Of a DNA stretch of 64,000 nucleotides, positions 144 through 63,039 are shown in pieces; within the stretch, counting starts at the first letter, position 1, and every line of letters starts with the position of its first letter. The position numbers and the translations under genes were made by a program. The DNA comes from an uncultured beta proteobacterium (lineage in GTDB: Bacteria > Pseudomonadota > Gammaproteobacteria > Burkholderiales > SG8-41). The notes beneath the pieces are model-generated. The model saw only the letters and a list, made by a program, of their open reading frames with translations. It did not search any database and was not told where the DNA came from. Where the stretch lies: positions 10,839 to 74,838 of the forward strand of contig CAWDIV010000001.1 in the NCBI GenBank assembly GCA_963802355.1, read 5' to 3'.

Positions 144-1919
144 ATGGCAGATAATCCTTCAGCGGTCCGTCCGGCGCAGCCATTATCGCAAGTAATGAAC
201 AAGAACTTGCACCGCTTCTTTCCGTTTCTTTCCTGGTTTCCGCTCAAGCGCACGACGCTGAGAGCCGACTTGATCGCCGGCATCAGTGTCGCCATGGTGC
301 TGGTGCCGCAATCCATGGCTTATGCGCAGCTTGCCGGCATGCCACCTTATTACGGCCTTTATGCGGCTTGCCTGCCGGTCATGATCGGTGCGATATGGGG
401 ATCCTCGCATCAGCTCGCCACCGGCCCGGTGGCGATGGTCTCCCTGCTAACCGGCTCGATGCTCGCCAGCTTCGCTGCGCCCGGCACCGACCAGTTCATC
501 GCGCTGGCGATCCTGCTCGCCCTGATGGTAGGCGTCATGGAACTCGCGCTGGGAATGCTCCGGCTGGGCGCAATCATCAACTTCCTGTCGCATCCCGTGA
601 TCGTCGGGTTCACCAACGCCGCGGCCATCATCATCGCCCTGTCACAACTCGACAAACTGCTGGGAGTTCCCGCCCGCCGCAGCGGCAGCTTTATCGCCGA
701 CGTCTGGGGACTATTGAGCCAGGCGGGGGACACACGCTTGCTCACGCTGCTCATGGGAATCGCAGCATTCGTGATCATGTGGCTCCTGCGCAGATACGCA
801 CCGCGCTGGCCTGGCGTGCTGATCGCGGTCGCCGTCACCACGCTGGCGAGCTGGCAGATCGGGTTCGAGAAGGCCGGCGGTGCTGTTGTAGGCACGATCC
901 CCCCAGGGCTACCAAAGCTTGCCATACCGCCGTTGAACGGTGAAACGATCATGTTGCTGCTGTCCACCGCGTTCGTGATCACGCTGGTGGGATTCATGGA
1001 GGCAATCTCGATCGCCAAAGCGATGGCAACCAAGACCAGGCAGCGCATAGATCCGAATCAGGAGCTGGTCGGCCAGGGGCTCGCGAATGTCGTCGGCAGC
1101 TTCTGCCAGTCGTTTCCCGTGAGCGGGTCGTTCTCGCGCTCGGCTGTCAACCTCTCCGCCGGCGCGGTTACGGGCATGTCTTCCGTAGTGACTGGGGTCA
1201 TCGTGCTCGCGACCCTGCTCGCTTTCACCTCGCTGTTGTATCACCTTCCGCAATCGGTGCTGGCCGCCATCATCATGATGGCGGTGGTCAACCTCGTTAA
1301 CCTAGACGCGATGCGTCACATCTGGAAGGCGCAGCGGCACGACGGCCTGGCGGCGGCTACGACATTTGCCGCAACCCTCATTTTGGCACCGAACCTCGAC
1401 GCCGGGATCCTGATCGGCGCCGCGCTCGCGATCGTGCTCTACCTCTACCGCACCATGCGCCCCCGCGTCGTGGTTCTCGGCCGACATGCTGACGGAACGC
1501 TGCGCGACGCCACAATGCACGATCTGTCGACCAGCAAGCACGTCATCGCCATCCGCTTTGATGGGTCGCTCTATTTCGCGAACGTGCCTTATTTCGAGGA
1601 TGCCGTGCTGGAGGAAGTCGCCCGCAATCCCGAGGCCCGCTATCTCCTGATCGTGGGCGACGGCATCAACGAGCTCGACGCTTCCGGTGAGGAAGTGATC
1701 CGCCACCTGGTGCAGCGGCTGCGCGACAGCGGCGTCACCCTGGTATTTTCTGGACTCAAGCACCAGGTGATGCAGGTGATGGAGCGCACCGGGTTGCGCG
1801 AGGTGGTCGGGACCGAAAATCTGTTCCGCACCGAAGACCTGGCCCTGGAAGCCATCCACTCGGCCATCGACGCCGGAAAGCTCCCGCCGGAAGACTTTCT
1901 CTTGAAACCGTTCCGATAG
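144..1919 (+). CDS. SulP family inorganic anion transporter with C-terminal STAS domain
   Basis: ORF 78..1919. It has the SulP signature region LIAGISVAMVLVPQSMAYAQLAGMPPYYGLYAA, many TM segments, and a STAS-like tail (VIAIRFDGSLYFANVPYFED...LIVGDGINELDASGEEV). The start is ambiguous (GTG 78, ATG 144, ATG 195). Confidence 0.9.
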   Translation: MADNPSAVRPAQPLSQVMNKNLHRFFPFLSWFPLKRTTLRADLIAGISVAMVLVPQSMAYAQLAGMPPYYGLYAACLPVMIGAIWGSSHQLATGPVAMVSLLTGSMLASFAAPGTDQFIALAILLALMVGVMELALGMLRLGAIINFLSHPVIVGFTNAAAIIIALSQLDKLLGVPARRSGSFIADVWGLLSQAGDTRLLTLLMGIAAFVIMWLLRRYAPRWPGVLIAVAVTTLASWQIGFEKAGGAVVGTIPPGLPKLAIPPLNGETIMLLLSTAFVITLVGFMEAISIAKAMATKTRQRIDPNQELVGQGLANVVGSFCQSFPVSGSFSRSAVNLSAGAVTGMSSVVTGVIVLATLLAFTSLLYHLPQSVLAAIIMMAVVNLVNLDAMRHIWKAQRHDGLAAATTFAATLILAPNLDAGILIGAALAIVLYLYRTMRPRVVVLGRHADGTLRDATMHDLSTSKHVIAIRFDGSLYFANVPYFEDAVLEEVARNPEARYLLIVGDGINELDASGEEVIRHLVQRLRDSGVTLVFSGLKHQVMQVMERTGLREVVGTENLFRTEDLALEAIHSAIDAGKLPPEDFLLKPFR

Positions 1920-1930
1920 AATAAGCGGCC

Positions 1931-2482
1931 ATGGGCAAGCGCCTGACCAAAATCTACACGCGCACCGGCGACGGCGGGACCACGGGCCTGGCCGACGGCT
2001 CGCGCGTCGCCAAGGACGCGCCCCGCATCGAGGCGATCGGCGCGGTGGACGAGCTGAACAGCCTCGTGGGCATGTTGCTGGCCGAGAAGCTGCCGCGAAA
2101 CCTGCGCGGCTGCTTGACCGACGTGCAGCATGACCTCTTCGATCTCGGTGGCGAGTTGAGCGTTCCGGGCCACGCCATCATGACCGAAGCACACATTACA
2201 CGGCTCGAAAAGCTGCTCGACCGCCTCAACGCCCGGCTGCCGCCGCTCAAGGATTTCGTTCTGCCAGGCGGATCGCGCGCTGCGGGCTGCGCGCACGTAG
2301 CGCGCGCCGTCTGCCGTCGCGCCGAGCGCCGCGTGGTGACGCTCGCCGGGAAGGAAACGGCCCCGCCGCTCGCGATGCGCTATCTGAATCGCCTGTCGGA
2401 CCTGTTGTTCGTGCTCGCCCGGGTGTTTAACCGGCGCACCCGCGGGGGTGATGTGTTGTGGCAGCAGGGTAAGAACCGGTGA
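1931..2482 (+). CDS. PduO-type ATP:cob(I)alamin adenosyltransferase
   Basis: N-terminus MGKRLTKIYTRTGDGGTTGLADGSRV...IEAIGAVDELNS is typical of the PduO/MMAB family. Length is 183 aa. Confidence 0.9.
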   Translation: MGKRLTKIYTRTGDGGTTGLADGSRVAKDAPRIEAIGAVDELNSLVGMLLAEKLPRNLRGCLTDVQHDLFDLGGELSVPGHAIMTEAHITRLEKLLDRLNARLPPLKDFVLPGGSRAAGCAHVARAVCRRAERRVVTLAGKETAPPLAMRYLNRLSDLLFVLARVFNRRTRGGDVLWQQGKNR

Positions 2483-3138
2483 GCGAAAGTTCCGGCAGCT
2501 CGGGAGATCGGGAGATCGGGAGCAGGAGGTCTGAGTCGAGCTCACGCCCTGACGCCCTCCCGCTCTCACGTCCGGCAGCTGACGCGCTGGCCGAGCGGCT
2601 GGCCGGCCTGTTAGCCCAGTGCGCAGTGAAAAACCAGCGTGCTTTTGCCGAGCTGTACACCCTTACCTCGGCGAAACTGTTTGGCGTCTCGTTACGTATA
2701 TTACGCAGGCAGGACTGGGCCGAAGAGGTGCTGCAGGAATGCTACGTCAGCATATGGACCCACGCCGGGGACTACGCTGCGACGAGGAGCGCGCCGCTTA
2801 CATGGATGACCAGCATCGTCCGCAACCGCTGTCTCGACTGGTTGCGCCGGCCGCAATCCGAGACCACCGGAGAGGAATACGAGATCGCGGTCGAGTCCTG
2901 GCAGGACGAGGCGGAGGGCCCGCTGGAACAGCTGATGGCAGCCGGTGAAGCCGGCGCGTTATCGCGCTGCCTCGCGCAACTGGAGCCAAAGCAGCGGCAG
3001 AGCATCGTGCTGGCCTTCTTCCACGGCCTGTCTCATTCGGAGCTGGCGAGCCACATGAAGCAGCCGCTCGGCACGGTCAAGACCTGGGTGCGGCGGGGAC
3101 TCGAGCGGCTGAAGGGCTGCCTGGCAGCCGCTGGGTGA
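2479..3138 (+). CDS. ECF-type RNA polymerase sigma-70 family factor
   Basis: Region 2 (AFAELYTLTSAKLFGVSLRILRRQDWAEEVLQECYVSIW) and region 4 HTH (LSHSELASHMKQPLGTVKTWVRRGLERLK). The GTG start overlaps the upstream stop (GTGA). Confidence 0.88.
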   Translation: MSESSGSSGDREIGSRRSESSSRPDALPLSRPAADALAERLAGLLAQCAVKNQRAFAELYTLTSAKLFGVSLRILRRQDWAEEVLQECYVSIWTHAGDYAATRSAPLTWMTSIVRNRCLDWLRRPQSETTGEEYEIAVESWQDEAEGPLEQLMAAGEAGALSRCLAQLEPKQRQSIVLAFFHGLSHSELASHMKQPLGTVKTWVRRGLERLKGCLAAAG

Positions 3139-4558: not shown

Positions 4559-4641
4559 CCGCTGAGACGCCGAGAAACCCAAGGGCAATCTAGCCGCCGA
4601 TTACGCCGATAACGCCGATAAGGAAAGGCGCAGGTAGAGTG

Positions 4642-4728
4642 TTCATCCTTCATCCTTCATCCTTCATCCTTCATCCTTCATCCATTCATCCTTCATCCTT
4701 CATCCTTCATCCTTCATCCTTCATCCTT
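4642..4728. repeat. Tandem heptanucleotide array, about 12.5 copies of TTCATCC (one variant copy, CCATTCA)
   Basis: Read directly at 4642-4728. It lies between convergent genes, and the last units encode the C-terminal residues (..EKDEG*) of the minus-strand GNAT gene. Confidence 0.95.
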
Positions 4729-5220
4729 CTCGGCGAGGCGACGCAGGGCGTCGCCTGTTAGCCGAAAGACGCTCCATTCCCGCACCGGTTCGGCGCCTAT
4801 GCCTCGATAAAACCGGATCGCGGGCTCGTTCCAGTCGAGTACCGACCAGTCCAGCCTCGCGCAACCGCGAGCAGTGGCTACACCCGCAACGTACGCCAGC
4901 AATCTCCGGCCCAGCCCGCGGCGGCGCCAGCGCGGCTCCACGAAGAGATCCTCGAGGTACAGGCCCGGCTGTCCTGCAAAGGTGGAGAAAACAGGGAAAA
5001 AGACCGCGAAGCCTGCAGCCTCCTCGCCGGCGCGCGCGATAACGACCTCGGCGGCGGGGCGCGGCCCGAAAAGCGATGTGCGAAGGGCCTCTTCGGTGGC
5101 AACGACCTTGTGCGAGAGCCGCTGGTACTCCGCGAGCGCCTTGATCATGCCAAGAATGACCGGCACGTCGCGCTCCGTCGCCGCCTCGATGCGAAAATCC
5201 GCTGGTGGTTGAAGACTCAT
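4714..5220 (-). CDS. GNAT family N-acetyltransferase (diamine/spermidine acetyltransferase-like)
   Basis: MSLQPPADFRIEAATERDVPVILGMIKALAEYQRL...EDLFVEPRWRRRGLGRRLLAYVAGVA shows the acetyl-CoA binding motif. ATG 5220 was chosen inside the longer ORF 4714..5280. Confidence 0.85.
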   Translation of the reverse strand: MSLQPPADFRIEAATERDVPVILGMIKALAEYQRLSHKVVATEEALRTSLFGPRPAAEVVIARAGEEAAGFAVFFPVFSTFAGQPGLYLEDLFVEPRWRRRGLGRRLLAYVAGVATARGCARLDWSVLDWNEPAIRFYRGIGAEPVREWSVFRLTGDALRRLAEKDEG

Positions 5221-5341
5221 TGCATTGATCATGACGTGAGTGTAGATCATCAACGTCTTGATCACGTTGAACGACGACACGTCCCGGCGCAGAATGACGG
5301 ATCACAAACCTCCATTCCGAACAACCATCGAAGGTAGGAAC

Positions 5342-5734
5342 ATGATCGACAAGCGCATCATCGGGACTTGGCGGCTCAAAAGCACGAAGGCCGTCGACGA
5401 CGACGGCAAGGTGCTGGCGCCCCCCTATGGACCGGCTCCCAACGGCGTGGTGTGCTTCCAGGCCAACGGGCGCATGTACTCCGTTCTGTGCGACGGCCGC
5501 GACGAACTGCCGCGCGGCGAGCCGCGGCAGTTCATGTCCTACGCCGGCAACTACACGTTCGACGGCACCACGCTTTCGACTCGCGTCGATGCCTCGTCGG
5601 ACGCAAGCCGGATCGGGGGCGACCAAGTACGCGACGTGCGCTTCGAGAACGGTGGCATGGTACTTGCGCCGCCGCGCCGGCTCTACGCCAGCGTGATGCA
5701 GCATCAGGAGCTGTTCTGGGAGCGCGTCGCCTAG
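5342..5734 (+). CDS. Lipocalin-like domain protein
   Basis: MIDKRIIGTWRLKSTKAVDDDGKVLAPPYGPAPNGVVCFQANGRMYSV...YAGNYTFDGTTLSTRVDAS is the typical lipocalin-like beta-barrel pattern. Confidence 0.6.
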   Translation: MIDKRIIGTWRLKSTKAVDDDGKVLAPPYGPAPNGVVCFQANGRMYSVLCDGRDELPRGEPRQFMSYAGNYTFDGTTLSTRVDASSDASRIGGDQVRDVRFENGGMVLAPPRRLYASVMQHQELFWERVA

Positions 5735-5885
5735 CGCGTCATGGCAGCGGACCCGGCCGAGCCAGACGCATCACCGCCCGGATGCATGAGCCAAAGCTTG
5801 CCAAGCTCCAAGGCGAGCGCATCATCGGGACTTGCGATCCGAGCAAATGCTCGAGAATTACGGCGTCACCGAATCGAATGGATCT

Positions 5886-6866
5886 TCATCGGCGGTTGCG
5901 TCTGACCTGCTCCAGCGCCGCGCACGCCACGCGGGCACCTTCCAAAATCCTTGGCGTCTGCCGCTGTATTAGATCCGGATTGACGTAGTGCGCCGGCAGC
6001 TCGCGCAGCGGTGGCAGGGCCGATGCGCGCCAGTGGGCGGCAAACTCCTTCTCACCACCTGCCGAGCCGCCACCCAATATCACCTCGGGTTTCGCCGCGA
6101 TGATCGCTTCGAGCGAGACCGTCGGGGTGAGCTGGGATACATCCGAGAACACGTTTTCTCCTCCGCAGAGCGCTATCACGTCGCTGATCATGTGGGCGCC
6201 GTTCACCGTCATGAACGGCTTCGCCCAGATCGCGTAGAACACGCGCACCTTCGGCGCTTTCGCATACCGCTCGCGCAGCTCCCGGATGCCTCGCTCGAAC
6301 TCTCCCGCCGCGCGCTCGGCTTCGGTCTGCATTCCCGCCAGCGCCCCGATCGCCCGCAGCACGCGGGGAATATCGGTCAGGCGGCGCGGCTCCGCGACGA
6401 AGACAGCGTATCCCAGCCGCTCGAGGCGCTCGAAATCGCCGGTCCGGTTGCCGCTCCTCCACGCGAGAACGAGGTCTGGGCGCAAAGCGACAATACGCTC
6501 GAGATCGACGCTCACCGCGTCTCCCACCTGCGCAATCTTTCGAGCTGCCGGCGGGAAATCGCTGTGGCGCGCGACGCCGACGAGGCGTCCTCCCGCTCCC
6601 ACGGCAAACGCCAGCTCCGCGAGGCTAGGCGCGATTGCCACGATACGGTGCGCCGGACCGGCAAGCGTTACGGTTTTACCTGCATCGTCGATAACGGACA
6701 CGGGCTGCGCGCCCACCGGCGCAGAAGCCAGGAGGACGGCAATCAAGCCGCAGATAAACGCAGGAAAGAACCGGGAACGGGTGAACGGGTGAACGGGTGA
6801 ACGGGAAAAAACATGGACGCCCTCTCCCCCGCTACCGGGGGAGAGGGACGGGGTGAGGGGGCTCAC
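5886..6866 (-). CDS. Periplasmic ABC-type substrate-binding protein, BtuF/FecB-like (cobalamin or siderophore binding family)
   Basis: RIVAIAPSLAELAFAVGAGGRLVGVARHSDFP...VSVDLERIVALRPDLVLAW. The annotated N-terminus runs into repeat 6773-6890, so the true start is probably further downstream. Confidence 0.75.
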   Translation of the reverse strand: MSPLTPSLSPGSGGEGVHVFSRSPVHPFTRSRFFPAFICGLIAVLLASAPVGAQPVSVIDDAGKTVTLAGPAHRIVAIAPSLAELAFAVGAGGRLVGVARHSDFPPAARKIAQVGDAVSVDLERIVALRPDLVLAWRSGNRTGDFERLERLGYAVFVAEPRRLTDIPRVLRAIGALAGMQTEAERAAGEFERGIRELRERYAKAPKVRVFYAIWAKPFMTVNGAHMISDVIALCGGENVFSDVSQLTPTVSLEAIIAAKPEVILGGGSAGGEKEFAAHWRASALPPLRELPAHYVNPDLIQRQTPRILEGARVACAALEQVRRNRR

Positions 6867-37999: not shown

Positions 38000-39052
<1,053 letters not shown>

Positions 39053-39078
39053 GTATGGTTTCCTTTTTTATGGACGGG

Positions 39079-39399
39079 AATGAAGGGATACCCCTCATGC
39101 TCCCTGGAACCTATCTCAACCATAGGCACGTGTGCGACGGAGGCGATGTGGGATGCAGTTCGAGGAGGAGAGCCCGCAGCAATATGTCGATATTGCAAGG
39201 GCTCCCGACGAACGAAATGCGCCCAGAGCGCCCCGTCCCTTCGGGTTGCGGCCAGGACGGGCGGCTGCGTTGTTGCCCGGCTTATCGACAGGCTGTCTCC
39301 TGAATTTGATTCAGGAGGCAGCCCGGCCTGCGCCGTGCGCCTCGCATCCATCCCGTCCTGGCCACAACGCATCACGCGCCTATGGTTGAGATAGGTTCC
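39079..39399. repeat. Copy 1 of a roughly 300-320 nt stem-closed structured element (candidate ncRNA or non-autonomous mobile element)
   Basis: About 95% identical to 47190-47486. It has a 22-nt terminal complement (39106-39127 / 39378-39399), a 12-nt internal long-range complement, and several hairpins. No ORF is conserved between the copies. Confidence 0.85.
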
Positions 39400-39781
39400 G
39401 GTTAGCAGCTGTTTCGTCAATGATCGAAACAGCCTGATTAAAGTAGGCCCGTATTTTAAACTACCCCTGCCGCCATCACGTGCTTTCATGCATCAAAGGT
39501 TTAAACGCGCGGCGCGAATTTTCAGTTGACTTCGTCGGCCACATCAGCGTCTTGGTACCACAAAGTGACTACTAACGTGACCGCCGACGGTTACCCAGAT
39601 CTGACCAAGCATAGGACTGGGGTAGAGCCCTCGGCCTAAAGCACCTCAGGGGATCGCGAGAGATTGATCTCGGCACCGACTAACTTCCGAAGAATGCGTT
39701 ACTCCTCAGGCCTTCGCGACGCTCAAATGACCCTAGAAGTCACTCTGCATCCATTACGGTCGGGTAATGAACCTGCAACTC

Positions 39782-46064: not shown

Positions 46065-47171
46065 TGGTTGAAGATAGCCAGTGATCTCCAGCCCGAAACC
46101 CGCCATGCTGGGCATGCGGCGCGGCTGAGCCATCAGCCGCATCTTCCTGACCTTGAGATCCCTCAGGATTTGCGCGCCTATGCCGTAGTTCCGGAGCACG
46201 ACGGCGGGCGTGGAGTGCACCTCGCGCGGACGCGGCCGCGCGCGCTCCAGCAGCTCCTGCGCGGTTTCCGGCCGGTGCAGGAGGACGATCACGCCGCACT
46301 CGGCGCGCGCGATGGTGGCAAGCGCGTCGTTGAAGTTCCAGGAATGGCTGGTGCTGCTCACGTCGAGGATGTCGATTACCGAGATGGGCTCGTGCACTCG
46401 CACCAGCACTTCCCGGTCCGGCACCGGCTTGCCTTTCACCAGCGCCAGGTGCGTCTCCTGTCCGATGCGGTCGCTGTAGACGAACAGGCGCAGCCGCCCG
46501 TGCACGGTCTCGATCTCGCGCTCGGCGACCCGTGTCACGAGCGACTCGTTGCGGCCCCGGTACTGAATGAGATCCGTGATCGTGCCGATCTTCAGCTTGT
46601 GCCGCGCCGCGAACTCGATGAGATCAGGCAGCCGCGCCATTTCACCATCTTCCTTCAGGACTTCGCAGATGACGGCTGCGGGCGCCACCCCGGCCAGCCG
46701 GGCAAGATCGCAGCCCGCTTCGGTATGACCGGCCCGTACCAGTACACCGCCGTCCTGTGCCATGAGCGGGAAGATGTGGCCCGGCTGAACCAAGTCCTCC
46801 GGCCGGGCATCAGCGCGGATTGCGACCTGCACGGTGCGCGCGCGATCGGTCGCTGAAATGCCCGTCGTGACACCCTCCGCTGCTTCGATCGAGACGGTGA
46901 AGTTCGTGCCGAGCGGCGAGCGGTTGTTGATCACCATCTGCGGAAGATTCAATTGGCGGCACTTCTCCGCGGTCAGCGTGAGGCAGATGAGCCCCCGCCC
47001 GTAACGGGCCATGAAGTTGATCGCCTCGGGCGTGACGAACTCGGCGGCGATCAGCAGGTCGCCCTCGTTCTCACGGTCTTCCTCGTCTACCAGTACGACC
47101 ATCCGGCCGGCGCCAAGATCGGCGATGAGGTCGGAAATGGGGCTGATCGCCGTGTCTGGGCGCGAGCTCAT
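46053..47171 (-). CDS. ribBA: Bifunctional 3,4-dihydroxy-2-butanone-4-phosphate synthase / GTP cyclohydrolase II
   Basis: [41 protein letters not shown] (RibB), then [12 protein letters not shown]...HLALVKG (RibA-like half). The ATG 47171 lies within ORF 46053..47189. Confidence 0.92.
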
Positions 47172-47189
47172 GGCTAAGGTAACTAACAA

Positions 47190-47486
47190 AATGAGGGGAT
47201 ACTCCCCTCATGCTCCCTGGAATCTATCTCAACCATAGGCACTTGTGCGACGGAGGCGACGTGGGATGCAGTTCGAGGAGGAGAGCCCGCAGCAATATGT
47301 CGATATTGCAAGGGTTCCCGACGAAGAAATGCGCCCAGATCGCCCCGTCCCTTCGGGTTGCGGCCAGGACGGGCGTCTGCGTTGTTGCCCGGCTTGACCA
47401 TATCGACATATGGCCTGCACCGTGCGCCTAGCATCCATCCCGTCCTGGCCACAACGCATCACGCGCCTATGGTTGAGATAGGTTCC
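47190..47486. repeat. Copy 2 of the stem-closed structured element
   Basis: Aligns with 39079-39399 apart from one hairpin swap. Terminal complement 47219-47240 / 47465-47486; 12-nt helix 47362-47373 / 47439-47450. Confidence 0.85.
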
Positions 47487-47693
47487 GATCAGGGCGCCTA
47501 TCCTTCATTTTGATAGGCGCTATAAATAAAAACGGACAGGATACAGGATATAACCCCCTGTTCCATAACGTGTCTGGGATTTTTCTGAGCCGGGATGTCG
47601 CCATCGCTGCCGTCGCAGGAACTACCTGAGGGCACCCCGCTCTATGCTGGCACACTGGTTATTGTCCGGGGTCGTATGCTACAACTTGACAGC

Positions 47694-51808: not shown

Positions 51809-52468
51809 ATGAGCAATCGATTTCGCACAGCGGTAAGGCGGTCGGCAATGGCGCTGCTGGTGGTGGGGATGGGCTTGGCAAGCAGCGCGTCCGCCATTCT
51901 GCTCGACCGCGGGCCGGACATGGTCTACGACACGGTGCTCGACATCACCTGGACGCGGCAGGCGGGTGACGGTGTCGCGCGGAATTGGGCAGACGCGAAT
52001 GCCTGGGCAGCCGGCCTGGTGTTCGGCGGTTTCTCGGACTGGCGCTTGCCTTGGGCGAGCGTGAGCGCGGGTGCTGGGCCCATCACCACGTTGACTTTTG
52101 GGCAACCCTGCACGGGAGCGGGTGGAGCGGACGAAGTCGGGTGCCGCGACAACGAGATGGCCTACATGTTCTACTACAACCTGGACGGGACATTCGGGAG
52201 CCCTGAGACCGGCACCCAGACCGCGGTCGGCGGCGAAGTGCTCACAGGCATTCAGACCCTCTACTGGTCCGGCACGGAGTTTGATTCCGCCATCGTGTGG
52301 GACTTCCTCTTCCTCAATGGCAACCAGTTCAACGTCGGCAAGAGCCTCAACTTCGTCGCGTGGGCTGTTCGTCCGGGCGATGTAGCCGCCGTGCCCGAAC
52401 CGGGTAGCTTGCTGCTGTTAGGGCTCGGCGCGGTAGGGTTGGGCTGGTCGCGTCGGCGCAAGTCCTGA
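51809..52468 (+). CDS. PEP-CTERM sorting domain protein with a DUF1566 (Lcl C-terminal)-like domain
   Basis: Signal peptide, then NWADANAWAAGLVFGGFSDWRLPW, and C-terminus VPEPGSLLLLGLGAVGLGWSRRRK. Confidence 0.85.
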   Translation: MSNRFRTAVRRSAMALLVVGMGLASSASAILLDRGPDMVYDTVLDITWTRQAGDGVARNWADANAWAAGLVFGGFSDWRLPWASVSAGAGPITTLTFGQPCTGAGGADEVGCRDNEMAYMFYYNLDGTFGSPETGTQTAVGGEVLTGIQTLYWSGTEFDSAIVWDFLFLNGNQFNVGKSLNFVAWAVRPGDVAAVPEPGSLLLLGLGAVGLGWSRRRKS

Positions 52469-53258: not shown

Positions 53259-54248
53259 TTACTCGATTACCTTGTCCGCACGCGCCAGGATCGACTGCGG
53301 GATCGTGATGCCCAGCGCCTTGGCGGTCTTTAGGTTCACCACCAGCTCGAACTTGGTCGGCTGCTCGACGGGAAGGTCTGCAGGTTTCGCTCCCTTGAGT
53401 ATCTTGTCTACGAAATAGGCGGCACGCTTGAAGTACTTCGTTAGATCAGGTCCATAGCTCATGAGGGCTCCCGCTTCTGCGAATTGGGAGGGTGCGCTCA
53501 TTGTTGGTAGTCGTTGCGCCAAGGCGAGCCGAGCTAATTGCGCTCGGTTTCTAACTAAAAGGGGTGTGTGGGCAAGAACTACGGCGTCTACCTGTTTTTT
53601 TCGCGCCAGACTGAATGCTCGCTCGATATCGTCGGCATTGTCGATCTTGATCGGCTCGACTTCTAAACCGAGTTTGCGAGCGGCGGCCTGCAGATCATCG
53701 GATTGAAGGACCCCTCCTGGGTTGGTGCTCTCCCACATTATGGCCAGCCTTCGCATTCTCGGGAGCACCTCTTTGAATAACTCAACTTCTTTGCCCGCAA
53801 GCTCCACGACTTGATCCGTCATACCCGTTAGATTGCCACCTGGGCGCGCGAGACTTGCGACCAGACCGCTCCGCAGCACATCTGACGCAACTGCCACGAC
53901 GATAGGTATGCTAGTGGTTGCCGCTTTGACGATTTGTGCGGCCTGGAGCCCGTGGGTGACGATGACGTCAACCTTGAGGCGGACCAATTCGGTGGCAAGC
54001 ATCGTTCGTCGCTCGGCGCTTCCTTCCGTCCACCGTACCTCGATAGTGATATTGCGCCCATCAACATAGCCTAGTTCGGCCATAGCTTCGCGAAATGGCT
54101 CGAAAGAATCGGCCGCGCGTTGGGCTGCTGTCCCGTCACCAAGGTAGCCAATGCGCCAGACTCTGGATTGTTGCTGCGAAAAAGACGCTAGCGGCGCCGC
54201 GAGCGCGCCTGCGCCGAGCACAATGATCAGTTTGCGGCGATTGTTCAT
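53259..54248 (-). CDS. ABC-transporter-type substrate-binding protein, ABC_sub_bind family, orphan (paralog a)
   Basis: MNNRRKLIIVLGAGALAAPLASFSQQ..VWRIGYL..VDVIVTHG..YFVDKILKGAKPADLPVEQPTKFELVVNLKTAKALGITIPQSILARADKVIE. Confidence 0.88.
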   Translation of the reverse strand: MNNRRKLIIVLGAGALAAPLASFSQQQSRVWRIGYLGDGTAAQRAADSFEPFREAMAELGYVDGRNITIEVRWTEGSAERRTMLATELVRLKVDVIVTHGLQAAQIVKAATTSIPIVVAVASDVLRSGLVASLARPGGNLTGMTDQVVELAGKEVELFKEVLPRMRRLAIMWESTNPGGVLQSDDLQAAARKLGLEVEPIKIDNADDIERAFSLARKKQVDAVVLAHTPLLVRNRAQLARLALAQRLPTMSAPSQFAEAGALMSYGPDLTKYFKRAAYFVDKILKGAKPADLPVEQPTKFELVVNLKTAKALGITIPQSILARADKVIE

Positions 54249-54479
54249 TCCCCCTCCCAATCCGCACGGCTATTATGCTCGCTTACCCCAAGGACAGCAG
54301 GCCGCGAGTCCAACGGGGGAGTGTCACAGACGACCGGTTTTGGCCGGCTACGGCCTGCTGCCGGCAGATTCCAATTTTCCAGATAGCGGCCGTTGCCGGA
54401 CAGACGTAATCGGTAGAGTCGAGATGTGGCGCGGTGGCGGTAGGTTCGGTTTGTCTGTTGCCGCCCCTTTCGTCTGGCG

Positions 54480-55138
54480 GTGCCCGAGTAACCTCGCCGT
54501 AGCTCCGTTTCCACATCCCGCTCATCGAACCGGACATGCAGATCTCCCGCATCCGGCTCTCGGACAAGACATCACGCCTGCTTGCGCGTGCAACGCCCTC
54601 TGCGGTTTCTGAACCCTGTCGGAGTTGATAGGGTTGTCCCAATCTCCAGGTCCCTCACCACGTCTTGCGTCAGCCTTGAACTGAGGCCCCTTCCCTCCAT
54701 CGGCGTTACCCGACTTCAGCGGTACTATGAGCCTCTCCGAGATCCCAAGGCGCCCGGCCTGTCCCTCGCGGGCATCCGGTTGATCGTCCCTGATCGCGCC
54801 TCGGGACTTCCCGTGTTGCGTGCGCTTTCCTGGTGTGCATGCTGTCGCCACTGCCCCGGCGCAGCAACCGGGCTGACTGCTTCGCTCATTCACCCAGTCG
54901 TATCAACCTTCCCCGAAAGGGTTGTCGGGTCGGCCTGCGCATCGACCTTTTCGAGGTTTGCTCAGCGTTCACTCACGTTACGGCCTGCACACTCGCCAAG
55001 TCACCTATATGTGACCCTCTGCACCGAAGGCTTCAGCCACTTCGTTACCTCCATGACTGCTCCGATTGCTTCCGGCTGGAGCCGTTGCCGGGTGGGCCTT
55101 ACACCCACTGGAAAGCGCCGCCTTGTCACGGCGCACAC
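54480..55138 (-). mobile_element. ORF-less (IEP-deleted) group II intron remnant
   Basis: The minus strand starts GTGTGCGCCGTGAC (GUGYG-type 5' end at 55138/55136). Domain V GAGCCGGAUGCGGGAGAUCUGCAUGUCCGGUUC lies at 54527-54559 (AGC triad, 2-nt bulge, GAGA loop). A relic of the maturase N-terminus ([18 protein letters not shown]) lies at 54581-54633. The 3' end is approximate. Confidence 0.7.
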
Positions 55139-55182
55139 CCGTTGCGGTCAGTCGTTGTTCTCGATAGCGGACATTGCCGTGG

Positions 55183-56238
55183 TCACTCAATCACCTTGTC
55201 GGCGCGCACGAGAATCGTGTTTGGAATTGTGATCCCGAGCGCCTTGGCCGTCTTCAGATTCACCACCAGCTCGATCCTCGTCGGCTGCTCGATCGGCATG
55301 TCGGCCGGCTTCGCGCCCTTGAGAATCCGGTCGACGTAGTAGGCGGCACGGCGGTAACTTGCCGACTCGTCAACCCCGTAGCTCAGCAAGGCACCTGCGT
55401 CAGCCCACTCCCCGACACTGCCGATGGCCGGCCAGCGTTGCTCCTGCGCAAACTTCACGATGCGCCGCCGCTCGGTGTGGAAAACACCCGGGCTCGGCAT
55501 CACGACGAGCGCTTGCGCGCCTTCCTTCGCCAGGCGCGCCAGGGCGGGCTCGATCTCTTCCGGACGAGCCACCTCGGCGATCCGTGCCTCCACCGAGTAT
55601 TGCGATACGGAGCGATGCATGTTTGCCAGAAGCGGGACAAGATTCGCGGAGGTGGTATCGACCAGAAAGCCGATGCGCCGCAGCCTGGGCGCCGCGGCGA
55701 GCAGCAGCTCCAGGTATTTCTCGGAGACGTCGCTCGTCAAACTGGCGATCCCAGTGACCATGCCGCCGGGCCGCGCGAGGCTTGTCGCCAGTCCCGCGAC
55801 GACCGGATTGCCGCCGATCACGACGACGGGCGTCCTGGGCGCGGCCTTGGTGGCGGCTCTTGCTGCCGGTGTCGGCACGGCAACAATGACCGCCGCTCGC
55901 TTCGCCGCCAGTTCGTCGGCCAGTGCTGGCAGACGGTCCATCCGGCCGTCCGCCCAGCGCTCTTCGATCACGACCTGGGACCCCTCCTTCATGCCTAGCG
56001 CGGCGAGCCCCTCCCTGAATGCGGCATGCAAATGCCCATTCCCCTCGCGCGGGCGCGCGTTCAGGAGACCGATCAAGACCGGCATCTGCGTTGTCTGTGC
56101 TCGCGCCGCACCCGTCCACGCGAGCGCGGGGCACGCCGCTGCCGCGAGGAGAAACGCCCGGCGCGTTGAACGGCACGCAGTGTCCGTTCGAACGCGACGA
56201 CGTAAACCGGCACGCCAGTGTCCAGGTTTACGGTTCAC
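55183..56238 (-). CDS. ABC_sub_bind family substrate-binding protein (paralog b)
   Basis: Ends ..YYVDRILKGAKPADMPIEQPTRIELVVNLKTAKALGITIPNTILVRADKVIE. The GTG start overlaps the stop of paralog c (GTGA). Confidence 0.85.
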   Translation of the reverse strand: MNRKPGHWRAGLRRRVRTDTACRSTRRAFLLAAAACPALAWTGAARAQTTQMPVLIGLLNARPREGNGHLHAAFREGLAALGMKEGSQVVIEERWADGRMDRLPALADELAAKRAAVIVAVPTPAARAATKAAPRTPVVVIGGNPVVAGLATSLARPGGMVTGIASLTSDVSEKYLELLLAAAPRLRRIGFLVDTTSANLVPLLANMHRSVSQYSVEARIAEVARPEEIEPALARLAKEGAQALVVMPSPGVFHTERRRIVKFAQEQRWPAIGSVGEWADAGALLSYGVDESASYRRAAYYVDRILKGAKPADMPIEQPTRIELVVNLKTAKALGITIPNTILVRADKVIE

Positions 56239-57225
56239 TCGATCACCCGGTCCGCGCGCACCAGGATGGACTGCGGGATCGTGATTCCGAGCGCTTTGGC
56301 GGTTTTCATGTTGACCACCAGCTCGAACCTGGTCGGCTGCTCGATGGGAAGATCACTCGGCTTTGTGCCCTTGAAAATCCGGTCCACGTAGTAGGCGGCG
56401 CGGCGCCAATTGTCTACTTGATTTGACGCGTAGCCCATCAGAATCCCGCGCTGCACGTGTGGCAAATTGATCGAAGCAGACGGCAGCCGATGCTTCACCG
56501 CCAGTTCCGCGATCTGGTGCATTTGCTGGGTGAAAAGGTTGCCGCCCGCAACGATCACCGCACGTACGTTCTCCCGGTTCATTCGGGAAAATGCGTCTTC
56601 GATTTCCACTGCGTTCCCCGCCTGCATCGGCAGGATCGTTACGCCCGCCTTCTGCGCTGCTGGCTGATAACTATTCATGACGTTGATGGAGCCGGGGCTG
56701 GCTGGGTCATACAGGACGGCCGCACGATTGAGCTTGGGCATGATGCCCAGCAGGATTTCCAGATTTTTGGACCCGAGTTCGCCAGTGAGGTCCGTGAGCC
56801 CGGTGATGTTGCCGCCAGGCCGCGCCAGACTCTTGACGAGGCCAGTTGCGACCGGATCAGAGACGCCCAGCATGACGATTGGAATGGCAGTGGTTGCTTT
56901 CTGCACCGCACTCGCACTGGGTGTCCCGCTTGCCACGATGACGTCCACTTTCAGCCGCACCAGTTCCGCCGCAAGGCCCGGTAAGCGCTCTGCCTTGCCC
57001 TTCGGCGAAGCGCCACTCGATGACGAGGTTTTTTCCCTCGACATAGCCAAGGTCCTTCAACCCTCGCAGAAAACCGTCACGTAGGTCTGAATCCACTTGG
57101 GTGAACTCAGCCGGCACCCTGAGAGCCCCGACCCGCCAGATTTTGCCCTCTTGCTGCGCGAACGCCGCCCGCGGCGCAAGCGCAGCGGCGCCGAACGCGA
57201 TGAGCAGATCGCGACGTCTGTTCAC
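56235..57225 (-). pseudogene. ABC_sub_bind family paralog c, split by one frameshift near 57000
   Basis: The N-terminal ORF 56857..57225 (MNRRRDLLIAFGAAALAPRAAFAQQEGKIWRVG..) and the C-terminal ORF 56235..57050 (..RLPGLAAELVRLKVDVIVASG..ADRVIE) are in different frames. Confidence 0.8.
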
Positions 57226-58244
57226 TCGATCACCCTGTCGGCACGCACCAGTATCGACTGCGGGATCGTGAGGCCGAGCGCCTTGGCGGTCTTCATGTTG
57301 ACCACCAGCTCAAACTTCGTGGGCTGCTCGATTGGCAGGTCGGCGGGCTTGGCTCCCTTTAAGATCTTGTCCACGAAATATGCGACGCGCCGGTAGCTCT
57401 CCGCTTGGACCGTCCCGTAGGACATGAGGCCACCGGCCTCTACAGCGATTCTGCTGCCGTACACCGACGGTAACCGGCTTTTTATCGCAAAGCCCGCGAT
57501 CCGTTTTACGTTAGCACCTAATAACTGGCCCCCGCCGGACACATAGAGTCCATCCGGGCGCTGCTTGTTTAGCGCAGCGAATACCTTCTCGAAATCGTCC
57601 GCATCTCGTACCTCCCAAGGCTGAACGGTCAACCCCAGCGCACGCGCCGCGACAGGGAGAACCTCTTTCACTTCGCGTGTAGTGCCCGGAATTGTCGGGT
57701 CGTAGAGAACCGCGACACGGGCAACTTTGGGAACGGCTTCTTTGAGCAGCTCCAGCCGCTTCCCGCCTAGCTTTGGGCCAAGGTTTGTAATGCCGGTGAC
57801 GTTGGCGCCGGGACGGGCAAGGCTTTCAACAAAGCCTGCCTCAACAGGATCGGGCCCAGCGCCCACCATAATGATGGGAATCGTCTTGGTCGCATTCTTA
57901 GCCGCCTGGGTAGTGGTCCCTCCTGCTGAAACGATGAGATCAACCTTGAGACCCACCAGCTCGGCGGCAAGCTCAGGGAGCCGATCGCGCTTCCCCTCCG
58001 CATATCGGTACTCGATGTCGATGTTTTGTCCTTCGATGTAGCCAAGCTCGCGCAGAGCCAGCCGAATCGCCTCGGCACGGGTGGACTCACTAGCTGAATC
58101 GAGCGGCGATAAATGCCCTATCAGCGGGACTTTCTTCGGCTGCTGCGCTGACGCAGAATAGCAAAGCGCAAAGAGCATGGCGCAAAGAGTAAGGATTGTG
58201 ATTTTTCCCTGTCGAGTAGACATCGAAATGTCTCCTTTAGGCAT
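57222..58244 (-). CDS. ABC_sub_bind family substrate-binding protein (paralog d)
   Basis: ..KVPLIGHLSP..VDLIVSAGG..YFVDKILKGAKPADLPIEQPTKFELVVNMKTAKALGLTIPQSILVRADRVIE. Its stop overlaps the start of paralog c. Confidence 0.88.
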   Translation of the reverse strand: MPKGDISMSTRQGKITILTLCAMLFALCYSASAQQPKKVPLIGHLSPLDSASESTRAEAIRLALRELGYIEGQNIDIEYRYAEGKRDRLPELAAELVGLKVDLIVSAGGTTTQAAKNATKTIPIIMVGAGPDPVEAGFVESLARPGANVTGITNLGPKLGGKRLELLKEAVPKVARVAVLYDPTIPGTTREVKEVLPVAARALGLTVQPWEVRDADDFEKVFAALNKQRPDGLYVSGGGQLLGANVKRIAGFAIKSRLPSVYGSRIAVEAGGLMSYGTVQAESYRRVAYFVDKILKGAKPADLPIEQPTKFELVVNMKTAKALGLTIPQSILVRADRVIE

Positions 58245-61665: not shown

Positions 61666-62294
61666 CTATCTCCTACGACGGCTCCAAACCAAACCAGCGA
61701 GGCCGATGAATGCGAGAGCGAGGGATGCTGGCTCCGGTATCACCGTGACGCTAAAGCTATCGAAGCTGAAGCCGTTTCCAGCCTGGTAAGCGAGATTGAT
61801 GGACTGTCCAACGGGCACGGTATTGTTGCTGATGAAGTTATAGACATCGAGCGCAGGAGCCGTCGGGTTCAATGTGATTGCGCCGAAGCCATCGATGGTG
61901 AGTAACGCTAGATCGCCAGTGGTCGCCCCCGTAAAGAGCGATAACACGATTTGATCGAGCCGGACGGGGACGTTGAAGATAATGCTGACGGACTCAAGTC
62001 CGAGGAGGTTGTCTATCAGACTCGTTTCGTCGCCCGTCCCGGGAGCGTTTACCCCAAACCCGCTTGCAGCCGTCGTATTGAGGATGCCGATATTAGCCGT
62101 GAGAGTCGCTGTGATGCCGTCGACTGTCAGCGAGAACGACGACGCCTCATCCACCGCTTCGACCGCTGCACTGCCCGCGAGTTGAAAGAGAGTGGCCTGG
62201 GCGGAAGGCGCGGTGCTTATGGCCAATATGATACACCGGCAGTAAGACCCAGTATGTGCACAGCCGCCAAGAATAGCGATTTCGCTTTCGTCAT
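61666..62294 (-). CDS. PEP-CTERM sorting domain protein; signal peptide separated from the body by one frameshift near 62228
   Basis: C-terminus VIPEPASLALAFIGLAGLVWSRRRR. The upstream ATG 62294 (SD GGGGGAG) encodes MTKAKSLFLAAVHILGLTAGVS in another frame and joins ..LAISTAPSAQA. Confidence 0.8.
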
Positions 62295-62458: not shown

Positions 62459-62476
62459 TGTAAAGTTTCCCGACAA
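62459..62476 (-). promoter_or_regulatory. Conserved 18-nt box (TGTAAAGTTTCCCGACAA on plus) upstream of a PEP-CTERM gene
   Basis: Same orientation and distance (about 65-80 nt from -24) as at the other two PEP-CTERM genes. An extra inverted copy, TTGTCGGAAAATTTGACA, lies at 62326-62343. Confidence 0.55.
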
Positions 62477-62568
62477 TGTACTCATGTTCCAATGCGGATG
62501 ATTGTCGGATATCGCCACCCGCAATGCTGCTGGCAAGACTCCTCCTACCTCTCTGCCAACATCGCCGG

Positions 62569-63039
62569 ATGAGGCCGGCTGCGTTCTTCCTTGCGTTGTC
62601 CTTGGTAGGCGCAGCCCATGCCGAGACAATCACCGGCCGCGTAGTCTCGATCGCCGACGGCGATACCCTCACGGTGTTGGTGGCACAGCGTCAGGTGAAG
62701 GTCAGGCTTGCCGACATCGATGCTCCAGAGAACAAGCAACCGTTCGGCACCCGCTCCCGGCAATCACTGGCCGCGCTGTGCTTCCAGAAGGATGCCCGGC
62801 TCGAGACCGCCGGCCAAGATCGCTACGGCCGCACTATCGCCACCGTCCAATGCGCCGGCACAGATGCGAATGCGGAGCAGGTGCGCCAGGGCATGGCCTG
62901 GGTCTTTGAGAGATACGCCCGACCGGATTCGCCGCTATACACCATCCAGAACGAGGCTAAGGCCGCAGGGCGTGGCTTGTGGCGCGATCCCAATCCGGTC
63001 TCGCCGTGGGAGTGGCGGGCGCAGAAGCGCGTCAAATAG
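62569..63039 (+). CDS. Secreted thermonuclease (staphylococcal nuclease, SNase) family protein
   Basis: Signal peptide MRPAAFFLALSLVGAAHA, then GRVVSIADGDTLTVL..VRLADIDAPE..DRYGRTIA..GMAWVFERY. Confidence 0.88.
   Translation: MRPAAFFLALSLVGAAHAETITGRVVSIADGDTLTVLVAQRQVKVRLADIDAPENKQPFGTRSRQSLAALCFQKDARLETAGQDRYGRTIATVQCAGTDANAEQVRQGMAWVFERYARPDSPLYTIQNEAKAAGRGLWRDPNPVSPWEWRAQKRVK

Follow-up and report, generated by a model that had tools for sequence, protein, structure and literature searches.

A 64,000-nucleotide (nt) stretch from an uncultured beta proteobacterium of the order Burkholderiales (assembly GCA_963802355.1, contig CAWDIV010000001.1, positions 10,839 to 74,838 of the forward strand; the whole stretch is called the window below) carries two copies of a long palindromic element, copy 1 upstream of recA and copy 2 upstream of ribBA. 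This raises the question of whether such an element is kept as an RNA or as a piece of mobile DNA. An earlier note on this sequence had argued for selection on a plus-strand RNA or on structured DNA, with the hairpins that flank each copy perhaps acting as insertion targets. The answer that we consider likely is that the element is a palindromic, non-coding piece of mobile repeat DNA, so far undescribed, from uncultured Burkholderiales of soil, a foldback resembling REPINs and MITEs (miniature transposable elements with inverted repeats), which is probably mobilised as a folded single strand; the single-strand mechanism, taken alone, is the more tentative part of this proposal.

Two sets of observations carry this answer. 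The core of the element moves into unrelated sites, one of them a coding sequence, without the second repeat (H) that flanks it in the window, and H exists without the core. Moreover, close relatives lack the block composed of H and core at the corresponding positions, and pairing within the core is kept by changes on both sides of its helices.

Extent, fold and pairing of the core

Direct reading of both regions placed every sequence feature of the earlier note where the note had put it, including the thymines at 47223 and 47315, the hairpins at 47398-47413, 39291-39323 and 47191-47211, and the hairpins distal to each copy. The parts of the two cores are as follows (no strand is assigned to any of them).

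47220 to 47485: copy 2 core, a 266-nt foldback, GAATC...GGTTC, matched by the family profile in nhmmer at E=2.4e-96
47220 to 47248: left terminal inverted repeat and its extension, the 5' half of the closing stem P1, pairing with 47456-47485
47249 to 47349: internal arm P2, helices 2-5, with the apical hairpin GCAATAT-GTCG-ATATTGC
47357 to 47455: internal arm P3, helices 8-12, with the tip hairpin CCATAT-CGAC-ATATGG at 47398-47413
47456 to 47485: right terminal inverted repeat and its extension, the 3' half of P1, delimited by repeat match and pairing test
39107 to 39398: copy 1 core, 292 nt, nhmmer E=1.4e-88, with terminal repeats that match perfectly
39291 to 39323: 33-nt palindrome found in copy 1 only, replacing most of the P3 tip hairpin, with the loop-side ATCGACA kept

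The length of 292 nt in copy 1 is due to its extra palindrome. Across copies the core ranges from 264 to 332 nt, typically about 264-268 nt, and its ends have the general form (R)GAACCTATCTC...GAGATAGGTTC(Y), the termini reading AGAACCTATCTCAA. The 22-nt terminal sequence GCCTATGGTTGAGATAGGTTCC has four matches in the window, arranged as two inverted pairs, where none is expected; the repeats are perfect over 22 nt in copy 1 and carry one mismatch (T at 47223) in copy 2. The minimum free energy of the copy 2 core is -146 kcal/mol on the plus strand and -150 kcal/mol on the minus strand, with z-scores against shuffles of -9.6 and -11.1, respectively, for the region. The consensus fold is a three-way junction, in which a closing stem P1 of about 29 bp leads to the long left arm P2, a CC-TTC-GG mini-hairpin and the long right arm P3. 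In the core several frames are open, but they contain stops in some copies, and the products of spurious open reading frames (ORFs) that read through the element are 67-93% identical with changes that are non-conservative; on these grounds the element is regarded as non-coding.

Within the 64 kb of the window the copy number is two. Full, partial or deleted copies were found at 12 further loci, at unrelated sites in soil metagenomes and in one metagenome-assembled genome (L001-L010, L013, L014 and L017, L003 and L007 being the same locus). A pattern scan of species-representative genomes returned one partial copy, in the metagenome-assembled genome (L001), and a metagenome scan returned nine soil loci; additional loci were retrieved by way of the spurious ORFs, with a six-frame protein query (four hits) and then a search of a representative library, which gave more ORFs and one further DNA locus. 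The copies fall into the following groups.

Full cores, seven: copy 1, copy 2, L010, L004, L013, L017 and L014
Partial copies at contig ends, five: L001, L002, L006, L008 and L009
Deletion derivatives with little beyond the two termini: L005 (50 bp) and L007, the same locus as L003 (46 bp)
L014, 902 to 969: extra insert of 68 nt in the P2 arm, with the small hairpins GGTCGC-TTC-GCGACC and GCAACGGC-GGAA-GCCGTTGC

The minimal derivatives are palindromes of 46-50 bp, at L005 756-803 and L007 1100-1142 (L003 12769-12804), and the endpoints of the L007 deletion share the direct repeat CAAC. At least 11 further ORF clusters (50% identity) in public data read through the element, so the exact-pattern scans understate both the breadth and the diversity of the family. 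Such chimeric or spurious element-derived ORFs (P0122-P0124, P0265-P0365) are present in public protein databases. As to the host, the names borne by the closest homologues of RibBA and RecA put it among uncultured Burkholderiales/Betaproteobacteria.

The searches for a known counterpart gave no match to the whole element or its terminal repeat among PLSDB plasmids, none to the terminal-repeat sequence in the literature and none to the conserved junction block in IMG/VR. With Rfam 15 at gathering score over the whole window no family covered the element, the only match to reach threshold being a group II intron elsewhere, and at E values up to 10 on 47100-47600 no family was found either, the best matches to the element having E >= 1.8. 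Group I and group II introns were rejected as candidates in view of the missing Rfam match, the wrong ends and the occurrence of the element in both orientations in intergenic DNA; a retron was rejected since no reverse transcriptase lies adjacent.

The earlier note had claimed that the differences between the two window copies concentrate where they preserve pairing. Outside the swapped tip there are 11 such differences, seven in the 68 unpaired nucleotides and four in the 198 paired ones, so that stems are indeed avoided (binomial estimate about 0.009). The note had cited only two of the four stem differences, the T-G pairs at 47223 and 47315; of the remaining two, T-C at 47243 is broken on both strands, and A-C at 47419 forms a wobble in the minus sense only. 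The claim that the helices are maintained extends well to the additional copies. Among the seven full copies 98.0% of 693 cells are standard pairs, and ten pairs have changed on both sides, compared with 3.8±1.2 in shuffles (none of 500 shuffles reached ten) and at most three when the partners are slid; the covariation score was 0.087 versus 0.042. For helix 1, the closing stem P1, the figures are 28 pairs, 98% of cells paired and three pairs changed on both sides. These covariation counts overstate the number of independent events, since the copies are closely related, and the helices are clearly being kept across the family.

The clearest covariation is in a 3-nt patch of the terminal repeats, which changes jointly on both arms and exists in three variants.

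CAACCATAGG (left arm) and CCTATGGTTG (right arm): window copies, L004 and others
CAATAGTAGG (left arm) and CCTACTATTG (right arm): L013 and L017
CAATAATAGG (left arm) and CCTATTATTG (right arm): L014

Translated ORFs imply that still more variants of the patch exist. Other two-sided changes are GC/GU/AU in P2 and CCATAT/ATATGG as against CCCTAT/ATAGGG at the P3 tip. In the terminal stem L010 and L004, both from metagenome Ga0184627, have each made one side of what could be a single compensatory change, and each is left with a mismatch, A>C on the left in L010 and T>G on the right in L004.

As the earlier note had recognised from the two window copies, structure can be kept while the sequence of a hairpin is replaced. 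Tips have been swapped for unrelated hairpins at two positions of the core, P3 in copy 1 and P2 in L009, L006 and L014. Eight other copies have GACC(C/A)TATCGACATA(G/T)GGCC at the P3 tip where copy 1 has its 33-nt palindrome, for which no second occurrence was found in the window or the collected loci. The core of L014 reaches 332 nt through its 68-nt insert, itself built of further hairpins, and further nested inserts in comparable positions are implied by P0123 and P0365. Hairpin-for-hairpin replacement has arguably occurred also at hairpin B of the flanking repeat.

From the T-G pairs at 47223 and 47315 the earlier note had concluded that the plus strand is the RNA, and this conclusion did not survive the comparison. 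The two pairs are wobbles in the plus sense, as the proposal demands; such examples weigh little, because, whichever transition strikes a Watson-Crick pair, one of the two strands is left with a wobble, and the remaining stem differences, the minus-only wobble at 47419 and the break at 47243, do not follow the plus strand. Wobble-type single changes across ten copies number about six for the plus and about seven for the minus strand. The RNAalifold consensus energy of the plus strand is no better, at -139.4 kcal/mol versus -142.8 kcal/mol for the minus strand. In all seven full copies the minus-sense fold is equal or better, by 0.3-14.3 kcal/mol, and there are five invariant G.U pairs in the minus sense and two in the plus sense. 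The plus strand is therefore not indicated as the transcribed one, and any bias runs opposite to the one proposed. An RNA in the plus sense would, moreover, run antisense to both recA and ribBA, with no terminator to end it. A version in which plus-strand RNA or structured DNA is under selection and the flanking hairpins are mere insertion targets is, on this evidence, scarcely credible. For readings made from sequence, the lesson is that wobble differences between two copies of a palindrome cannot reveal the transcribed strand. Compensatory change does not by itself point to RNA either, since REPINs, which are elements at the DNA level, commonly show it across their hairpin (PMC3116915).

Empty sites, the host repeat H and the target

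The window-specific sequence exceeds the core at both loci, taking in a gene-proximal hairpin (A) and a distal hairpin (B), which belong to H.

47175 to 47534, no strand assigned: copy 2 whole window-specific block, composed of left H module, core and right H module, between the ribBA ATG (47171, minus) and conserved upstream sequence
47177 to 47219, minus: copy 2 left H module, including hairpin A (47191-47211), terminator-like with a UUUUGUU tail
47486 to 47534, no strand assigned: copy 2 right H module, with the linker CGATCAG, hairpin B (47495-47522) and a short tail; the most diverged copy
39068 to 39449, no strand assigned: copy 1 whole window-specific block, upstream of recA (ATG 39052, minus)
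39080 to 39098, minus: copy 1 hairpin A, with one G.U in the minus sense and no U tract after it; not reported by the terminator scan
39399 to 39449, no strand assigned: copy 1 right H module, hairpin B (39408-39433) and tail

Both blocks have empty counterparts. A locus with a RibBA 93% identical to that of the window (L011) aligns up to ...TCATGGC and resumes at GAAAGAATACAGGAT, with 12 nt in place of the roughly 360 nt of the window (47175-47534); L012 likewise lacks the block upstream of ribBA, and at L016 ribBA is preceded by a short intergenic region only. L016 shares the gene order of the window (ribBA-ribH-nusB-thiL-pgpA-cinA ... recA), and its RecA is 97% identical; upstream of recA the 382 nt of the window have 11 nt as their counterpart in L016, between flanks that correspond in local alignment to window 39023-39067 and 39450-39481.

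H is a repeat of about 100 nt with three hairpins, namely hairpin A, a small central palindrome and hairpin B. A coreless H lies at L013 555-645 (hairpin A, the small palindrome CCCCTGAATCAGGGG and hairpin B; left module 559-591). When GAACC...GGTTC is taken out of the composites, their flanks align to this coreless H collinearly and without gaps, and in four loci (copy 1, copy 2, L001 and L010) the core is found in the same orientation and at a single fixed point, which is the tip of the central palindrome. Hairpin A and the linker GCTCCC(T/A)G stand beside the core at these four; they are absent at L004, L009, L002, L006, L013, L014 and L017, where H-less cores end cleanly at their terminal repeats in unrelated sequence. 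The suggestion that the element inserts beside hairpins thus holds in a modified form, the core lying at a fixed point between hairpins A and B of H. The distal hairpins had been described as non-homologous, which is right only in part: those of copy 1, L010 and L013 can be aligned and differ by compensatory changes (GCTG...CAGC versus GCCG...CGGC), and even the hairpin of copy 2, the outlier, is collinear with them. A LexA box in hairpin B was considered and rejected, the spacing being CTGT-N16-ACAG instead of N8. A degenerate, coreless H-like sequence at L016 19665-19775 overlaps an ECF sigma-factor gene at its 3' end, stop codon included; its A-type hairpin would act as terminator of that gene in the minus sense, and H modules may possibly derive from, or supply, the 3' ends of genes.

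One may ask whether H and core are not simply a single element of about 370 nt, of which coreless H and H-less cores are products of decay or excision. The shared insertion point and orientation in four of four composites would follow from such a unit, as would the absence of the whole block from relatives at both window loci. Against this, the cores of the window agree at about 96% when the swapped tip is set aside and their B modules at only about 50%, H-less cores with clean ends occur at six or more unrelated sites, and the composites L010 and L001 group with the H-less L004 at diagnostic positions of the core. We tentatively favour independent homing of the core into H over movement of the composite as a unit, and rate the unit element as unlikely.

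One insertion lies in a coding sequence. At L013 the core (5469-5734) splits a gene of the ApbA/PanE type (ketopantoate reductase family; 5082-6398), which the gene caller has rendered as a chimeric 292-aa product (P0121) in which the element encodes the first 72 residues. Before the core the N-terminal part stops at ...GWGKTVGCM, and after it the C-terminal part continues with (S)STISVNLTGPG; a homologue of 75% identity that is intact (P0245) reads ...GWGRTVGCVVSTISVNL, to be compared with ...GWGKTVGCM(core)STISVNL at L013. The insertion brings a stop codon into the split gene. Because two codons between GC and STIS must remain, the net insertion is 264 nt (AACC...GGTT or the equivalent shifted by one base), and an insert of 266 nt with a duplication of 2-4 nt is therefore excluded. 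The H comparisons fit a 266-nt insert (GAACC...GGTTC) without duplication. The same frame arithmetic led to the rejection of three specific candidates: a TA duplication as in IS630-like elements, TA being present on at most one side; a 2-nt core of the IS110-like or serine-recombinase-like kind; and a 3-bp CTA duplication, seen in L004 only.

Among the seven copies for which both flanks are known no fixed-length target-site duplication is common to all, and the flanks differ. The left flanks are mostly ..AG (CTAG three times, GTAG, CCAG three times, TGAG and AAAG, plus CTGG/CAGG, with GG in the composites), and the right flanks mostly CT.. or CC... Taken together they suggest that the target is symmetric (RG^CY) and not one-sided, or else that the outermost pair varies.

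These observations bear on the possibility that the element is an ordinary MITE, that is, an internally deleted derivative of an insertion sequence (IS) with a DDE transposase, cut and pasted by way of its 22-nt repeats, with the internal palindromes being incidental. Perfect terminal inverted repeats and deletion derivatives that keep just the termini are what such an element would show, and L004 has CTA on both sides while TA or CTAG stands beside one end in several copies. The missing common duplication and the net gain of 264 nt in the ApbA/PanE-type gene speak against it. So does the 3-nt patch, which co-varies perfectly on both arms, since separate recognition of the two ends by a protein needs no such thing. 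Neither the window and the collected loci nor PLSDB plasmids and the literature yielded an IS with these repeats. An ordinary MITE is, on balance, rather improbable.

The leaders of recA and ribBA

The two composites of the window lie in the minus sense, co-directional with the nearby downstream gene, at a distance from block to ATG of about 5 nt for ribBA and about 15-27 nt for recA. In copy 2 hairpin A has, in the minus sense, a stem of nine pairs with TTTGTTAGTT as its tail, at a distance of 19 nt from the ribBA ATG (47171); it came out of the scan as terminator-like on the minus strand, which together with its UUUUGUU tail bears out what the earlier note had said of this hairpin. On the recA side one further feature deserves mention.

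39453 to 39458, minus: -10-like hexamer TAAAAT, just outside the insert, with CGTATTTTAAAC conserved in the window and in L016

This hexamer may be the -10 element of the recA promoter, and if it is used as such recA transcripts would begin just at the border of the block and cover its whole length. Consensus scans found no promoter-like or full sigma-70 site in the recA or the ribBA region. As both copies lie in the minus sense between likely promoters and the starts of recA and ribBA, the two mRNAs should carry a very stable structured leader of about 370 nt, which in copy 2 would have a terminator-like hairpin at its end, 19 nt from the AUG. With a folding energy of about -150 to -190 kcal/mol, such a block between a likely promoter and a start codon would represent a case of interference of a mobile repeat with core genes.

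It could be proposed from this arrangement that the element is a functional structured RNA, a mobile riboregulator or leader or a small RNA, made from the minus strand of the window, with hairpin A acting as terminator or attenuator for recA and ribBA. Both window copies are co-oriented with a start codon and immediately upstream of it, hairpin A with its UUUUGUU scores as a minus-sense terminator, covariation and hairpin-for-hairpin replacement are present, and the stability of the minus fold in seven of seven copies and its excess of invariant G.U pairs point the same way, the seven-of-seven result being weak since the copies are not independent. On the other side, the terminator sense of hairpin A is antisense to flanking genes in L010, L001 and the coreless H of L013. 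The core stands just upstream of genes in L014, P0122 and P0123; both orientations relative to genes occur, and once, in L013, the core lies inside a coding sequence, so there is no fixed regulatory geometry. Copy 1 has no U tract, neither region has a promoter-like site and Rfam has no family for the element. Close relatives, moreover, express recA and ribBA without it. A minus-strand RNA is thus a very improbable explanation for the element.

Directly downstream of copy 1, the recA gene of the window has a +1 frameshift at 38815-38825 (minus, about codon 78), reading ...CTGTCCGGTGATCGC... where L016 has ...CTGTCGGTCATCGC...; it splits the ORF into pieces of 94 and 319 aa, and the gene call on the contig is a truncated RecA of 315 aa (P0125). 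Either an assembly error or a real pseudogene would account for it. In L015, an unrelated organism of lower G+C, a 459-aa RecA (1737-3116) has two separate RecA_N Pfam matches and lies beside fragments of a Tn3-family transposase; this recA may carry an insertion.

Elsewhere in the window, Rfam reports a full-length match (103.5 bits) to the group II intron D1-D4-4 at 54973-55110 on the minus strand, within a tandem array of four ABC_sub_bind (PF04392) paralogues (53259-58244); no reverse-transcriptase ORF was noticed nearby, and the match may represent an intron fragment or an ORF-less intron. A tandem heptamer, (TTCATCC)n, of about 16 units occupies 4628-4740. Small PEP-CTERM proteins are encoded at 51809-52468 and 61666-62226 and a protein with an SNase domain at 62476-63039, and this right-hand part of the window has a G+C of 0.58-0.61 compared with 0.63-0.65 elsewhere.

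Mode of mobility and relation to known systems

The favoured scenario is that the core would be mobilised in trans, as a folded single strand or a cruciform, by an enzyme that leaves no duplication, most likely an enzyme of the HUH/RAYT-like kind or another hairpin-directed recombinase. Insertion would preferentially occur at G^C at the tips of palindromes, and deletion derivatives would arise through slippage, in L007 between the two CAAC repeats. The helices would be kept by selection for a hairpin substrate or by hairpin-templated repair; if the folded strand is what is mobilised, then hairpin formation, rather than an RNA product, is what selection or repair maintains. A role as RNA, though conceivable, is not needed to explain the element.

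Several points weigh against this overall picture. No partner transposase was found in the collected loci or in the ten ORFs of window 48-64 kb, the rest of the window being unscreened. The common position and orientation of the core in four composites also fits one ancient insertion followed by movement of the composite. Known transposition chemistry does not explain the replacement of tips by unrelated hairpins at three positions, which would fit selection on an RNA fold, and two copies in 64 kb are far below a typical REPIN population. The absence of duplication rests on few sites and one empty-site comparison made at the protein level, and the ends of the core are uncertain by one base per side, with no target base apparently duplicated on either reading.

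A bolder version would make the core the representative of an undescribed class of single-strand- or cruciform-dependent mobile DNA, defined by a three-way-junction foldback, duplication-free integration at palindrome tips, homing to a second repeat, a co-varying 'address' patch, exchangeable tips and an unlinked hairpin-specific enzyme, or else the scaffold of a mobile non-coding RNA that partners such an enzyme; to this we would give a small chance. For the present the element is filed as a palindromic non-autonomous bacterial repeat outside all named families, and not as a novel riboregulator.

Set beside known systems, the element shares features with several and agrees in full with none. 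With MITEs in general it shares terminal repeats, small size, lack of coding capacity, presence at multiple unrelated loci and insertion polymorphism, but it lacks the fixed-length target-site duplication by which these are recognised, and the search for a parent IS sharing its termini gave none in the window, in 163 kb of loci, among the plasmids or among the genome and metagenome pattern matches. Among named MITEs, the Correia/NEMIS repeats of Neisseria and the ERIC/IRU repeats of enterobacteria come nearest, with long terminal repeats and a similar small size. These are elements of 100-300 nt that lie in intergenic leaders, form long hairpins when transcribed and can affect the mRNA stability or termination of their neighbours. 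They duplicate TA, however, and form single long hairpins, whereas the present element is a three-way junction with exchangeable tips and no consistent duplication, and there is no sequence similarity, judging by the lack of a plasmid or literature match.

The modular palindromes known as BIMEs in E. coli, RIMEs in rhizobia and the palindromic elements of Rickettsia (RPEs) offer parallels for nested repeats and, in the case of RPEs, for occasional presence inside genes. The element has no sequence relation to them, and RPEs stay in frame and are translated, unlike the L013 insertion with its stop codon. Homing to a fixed point of a palindromic repeat is known from ISs that target hairpins, such as IS1397 and ISKpn1 in BIME loops and IS1111/IS110-type elements in REP or attC sequences. 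IS110-type elements leave little or no duplication. All of these ISs are, in contrast to the core, autonomous and protein-coding, IS110-type elements are devoid of long perfect terminal repeats, and no such gene is linked to the element here. PATEs, derived from IS200/IS605, are likewise small, non-coding, hairpin-dependent and free of duplication; yet IS200/IS605 elements have no terminal inverted repeats, their ends being subterminal hairpins that differ from each other, and they insert 3' of one fixed tetra- or pentanucleotide, whereas the ends of the element are perfectly complementary and its flanks look symmetric (RG^CY).

The closest likeness is to the REPINs of the REP-RAYT system. REPINs measure about 70-110 nt with a short spacer and occur in tens to hundreds of copies per genome, beside a single RAYT gene (PMC3116915, PMC8266576). 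Both they and the element are non-coding and non-autonomous, with inverted conserved termini that form a hairpin subject to compensatory changes (PMC3116915); neither shows a target-site duplication, and both probably rely on a hairpin in single-stranded form. The element differs in its 264-332 nt, in its two extra long internal arms and in its two copies in 64 kb, and no RAYT gene was seen, the ten ORFs of 48-64 kb being without a transposase domain. Thus it works most like a REPIN while departing from REPINs in size and architecture. Its nesting in another repeat at one fixed nucleotide offers a handle for finding the enzyme, through co-occurrence across Burkholderiales genomes. If this picture holds, a large, multi-armed and duplication-free foldback joins the few apparently hairpin-dependent non-autonomous repeats of bacteria for which REPINs have served as the model.

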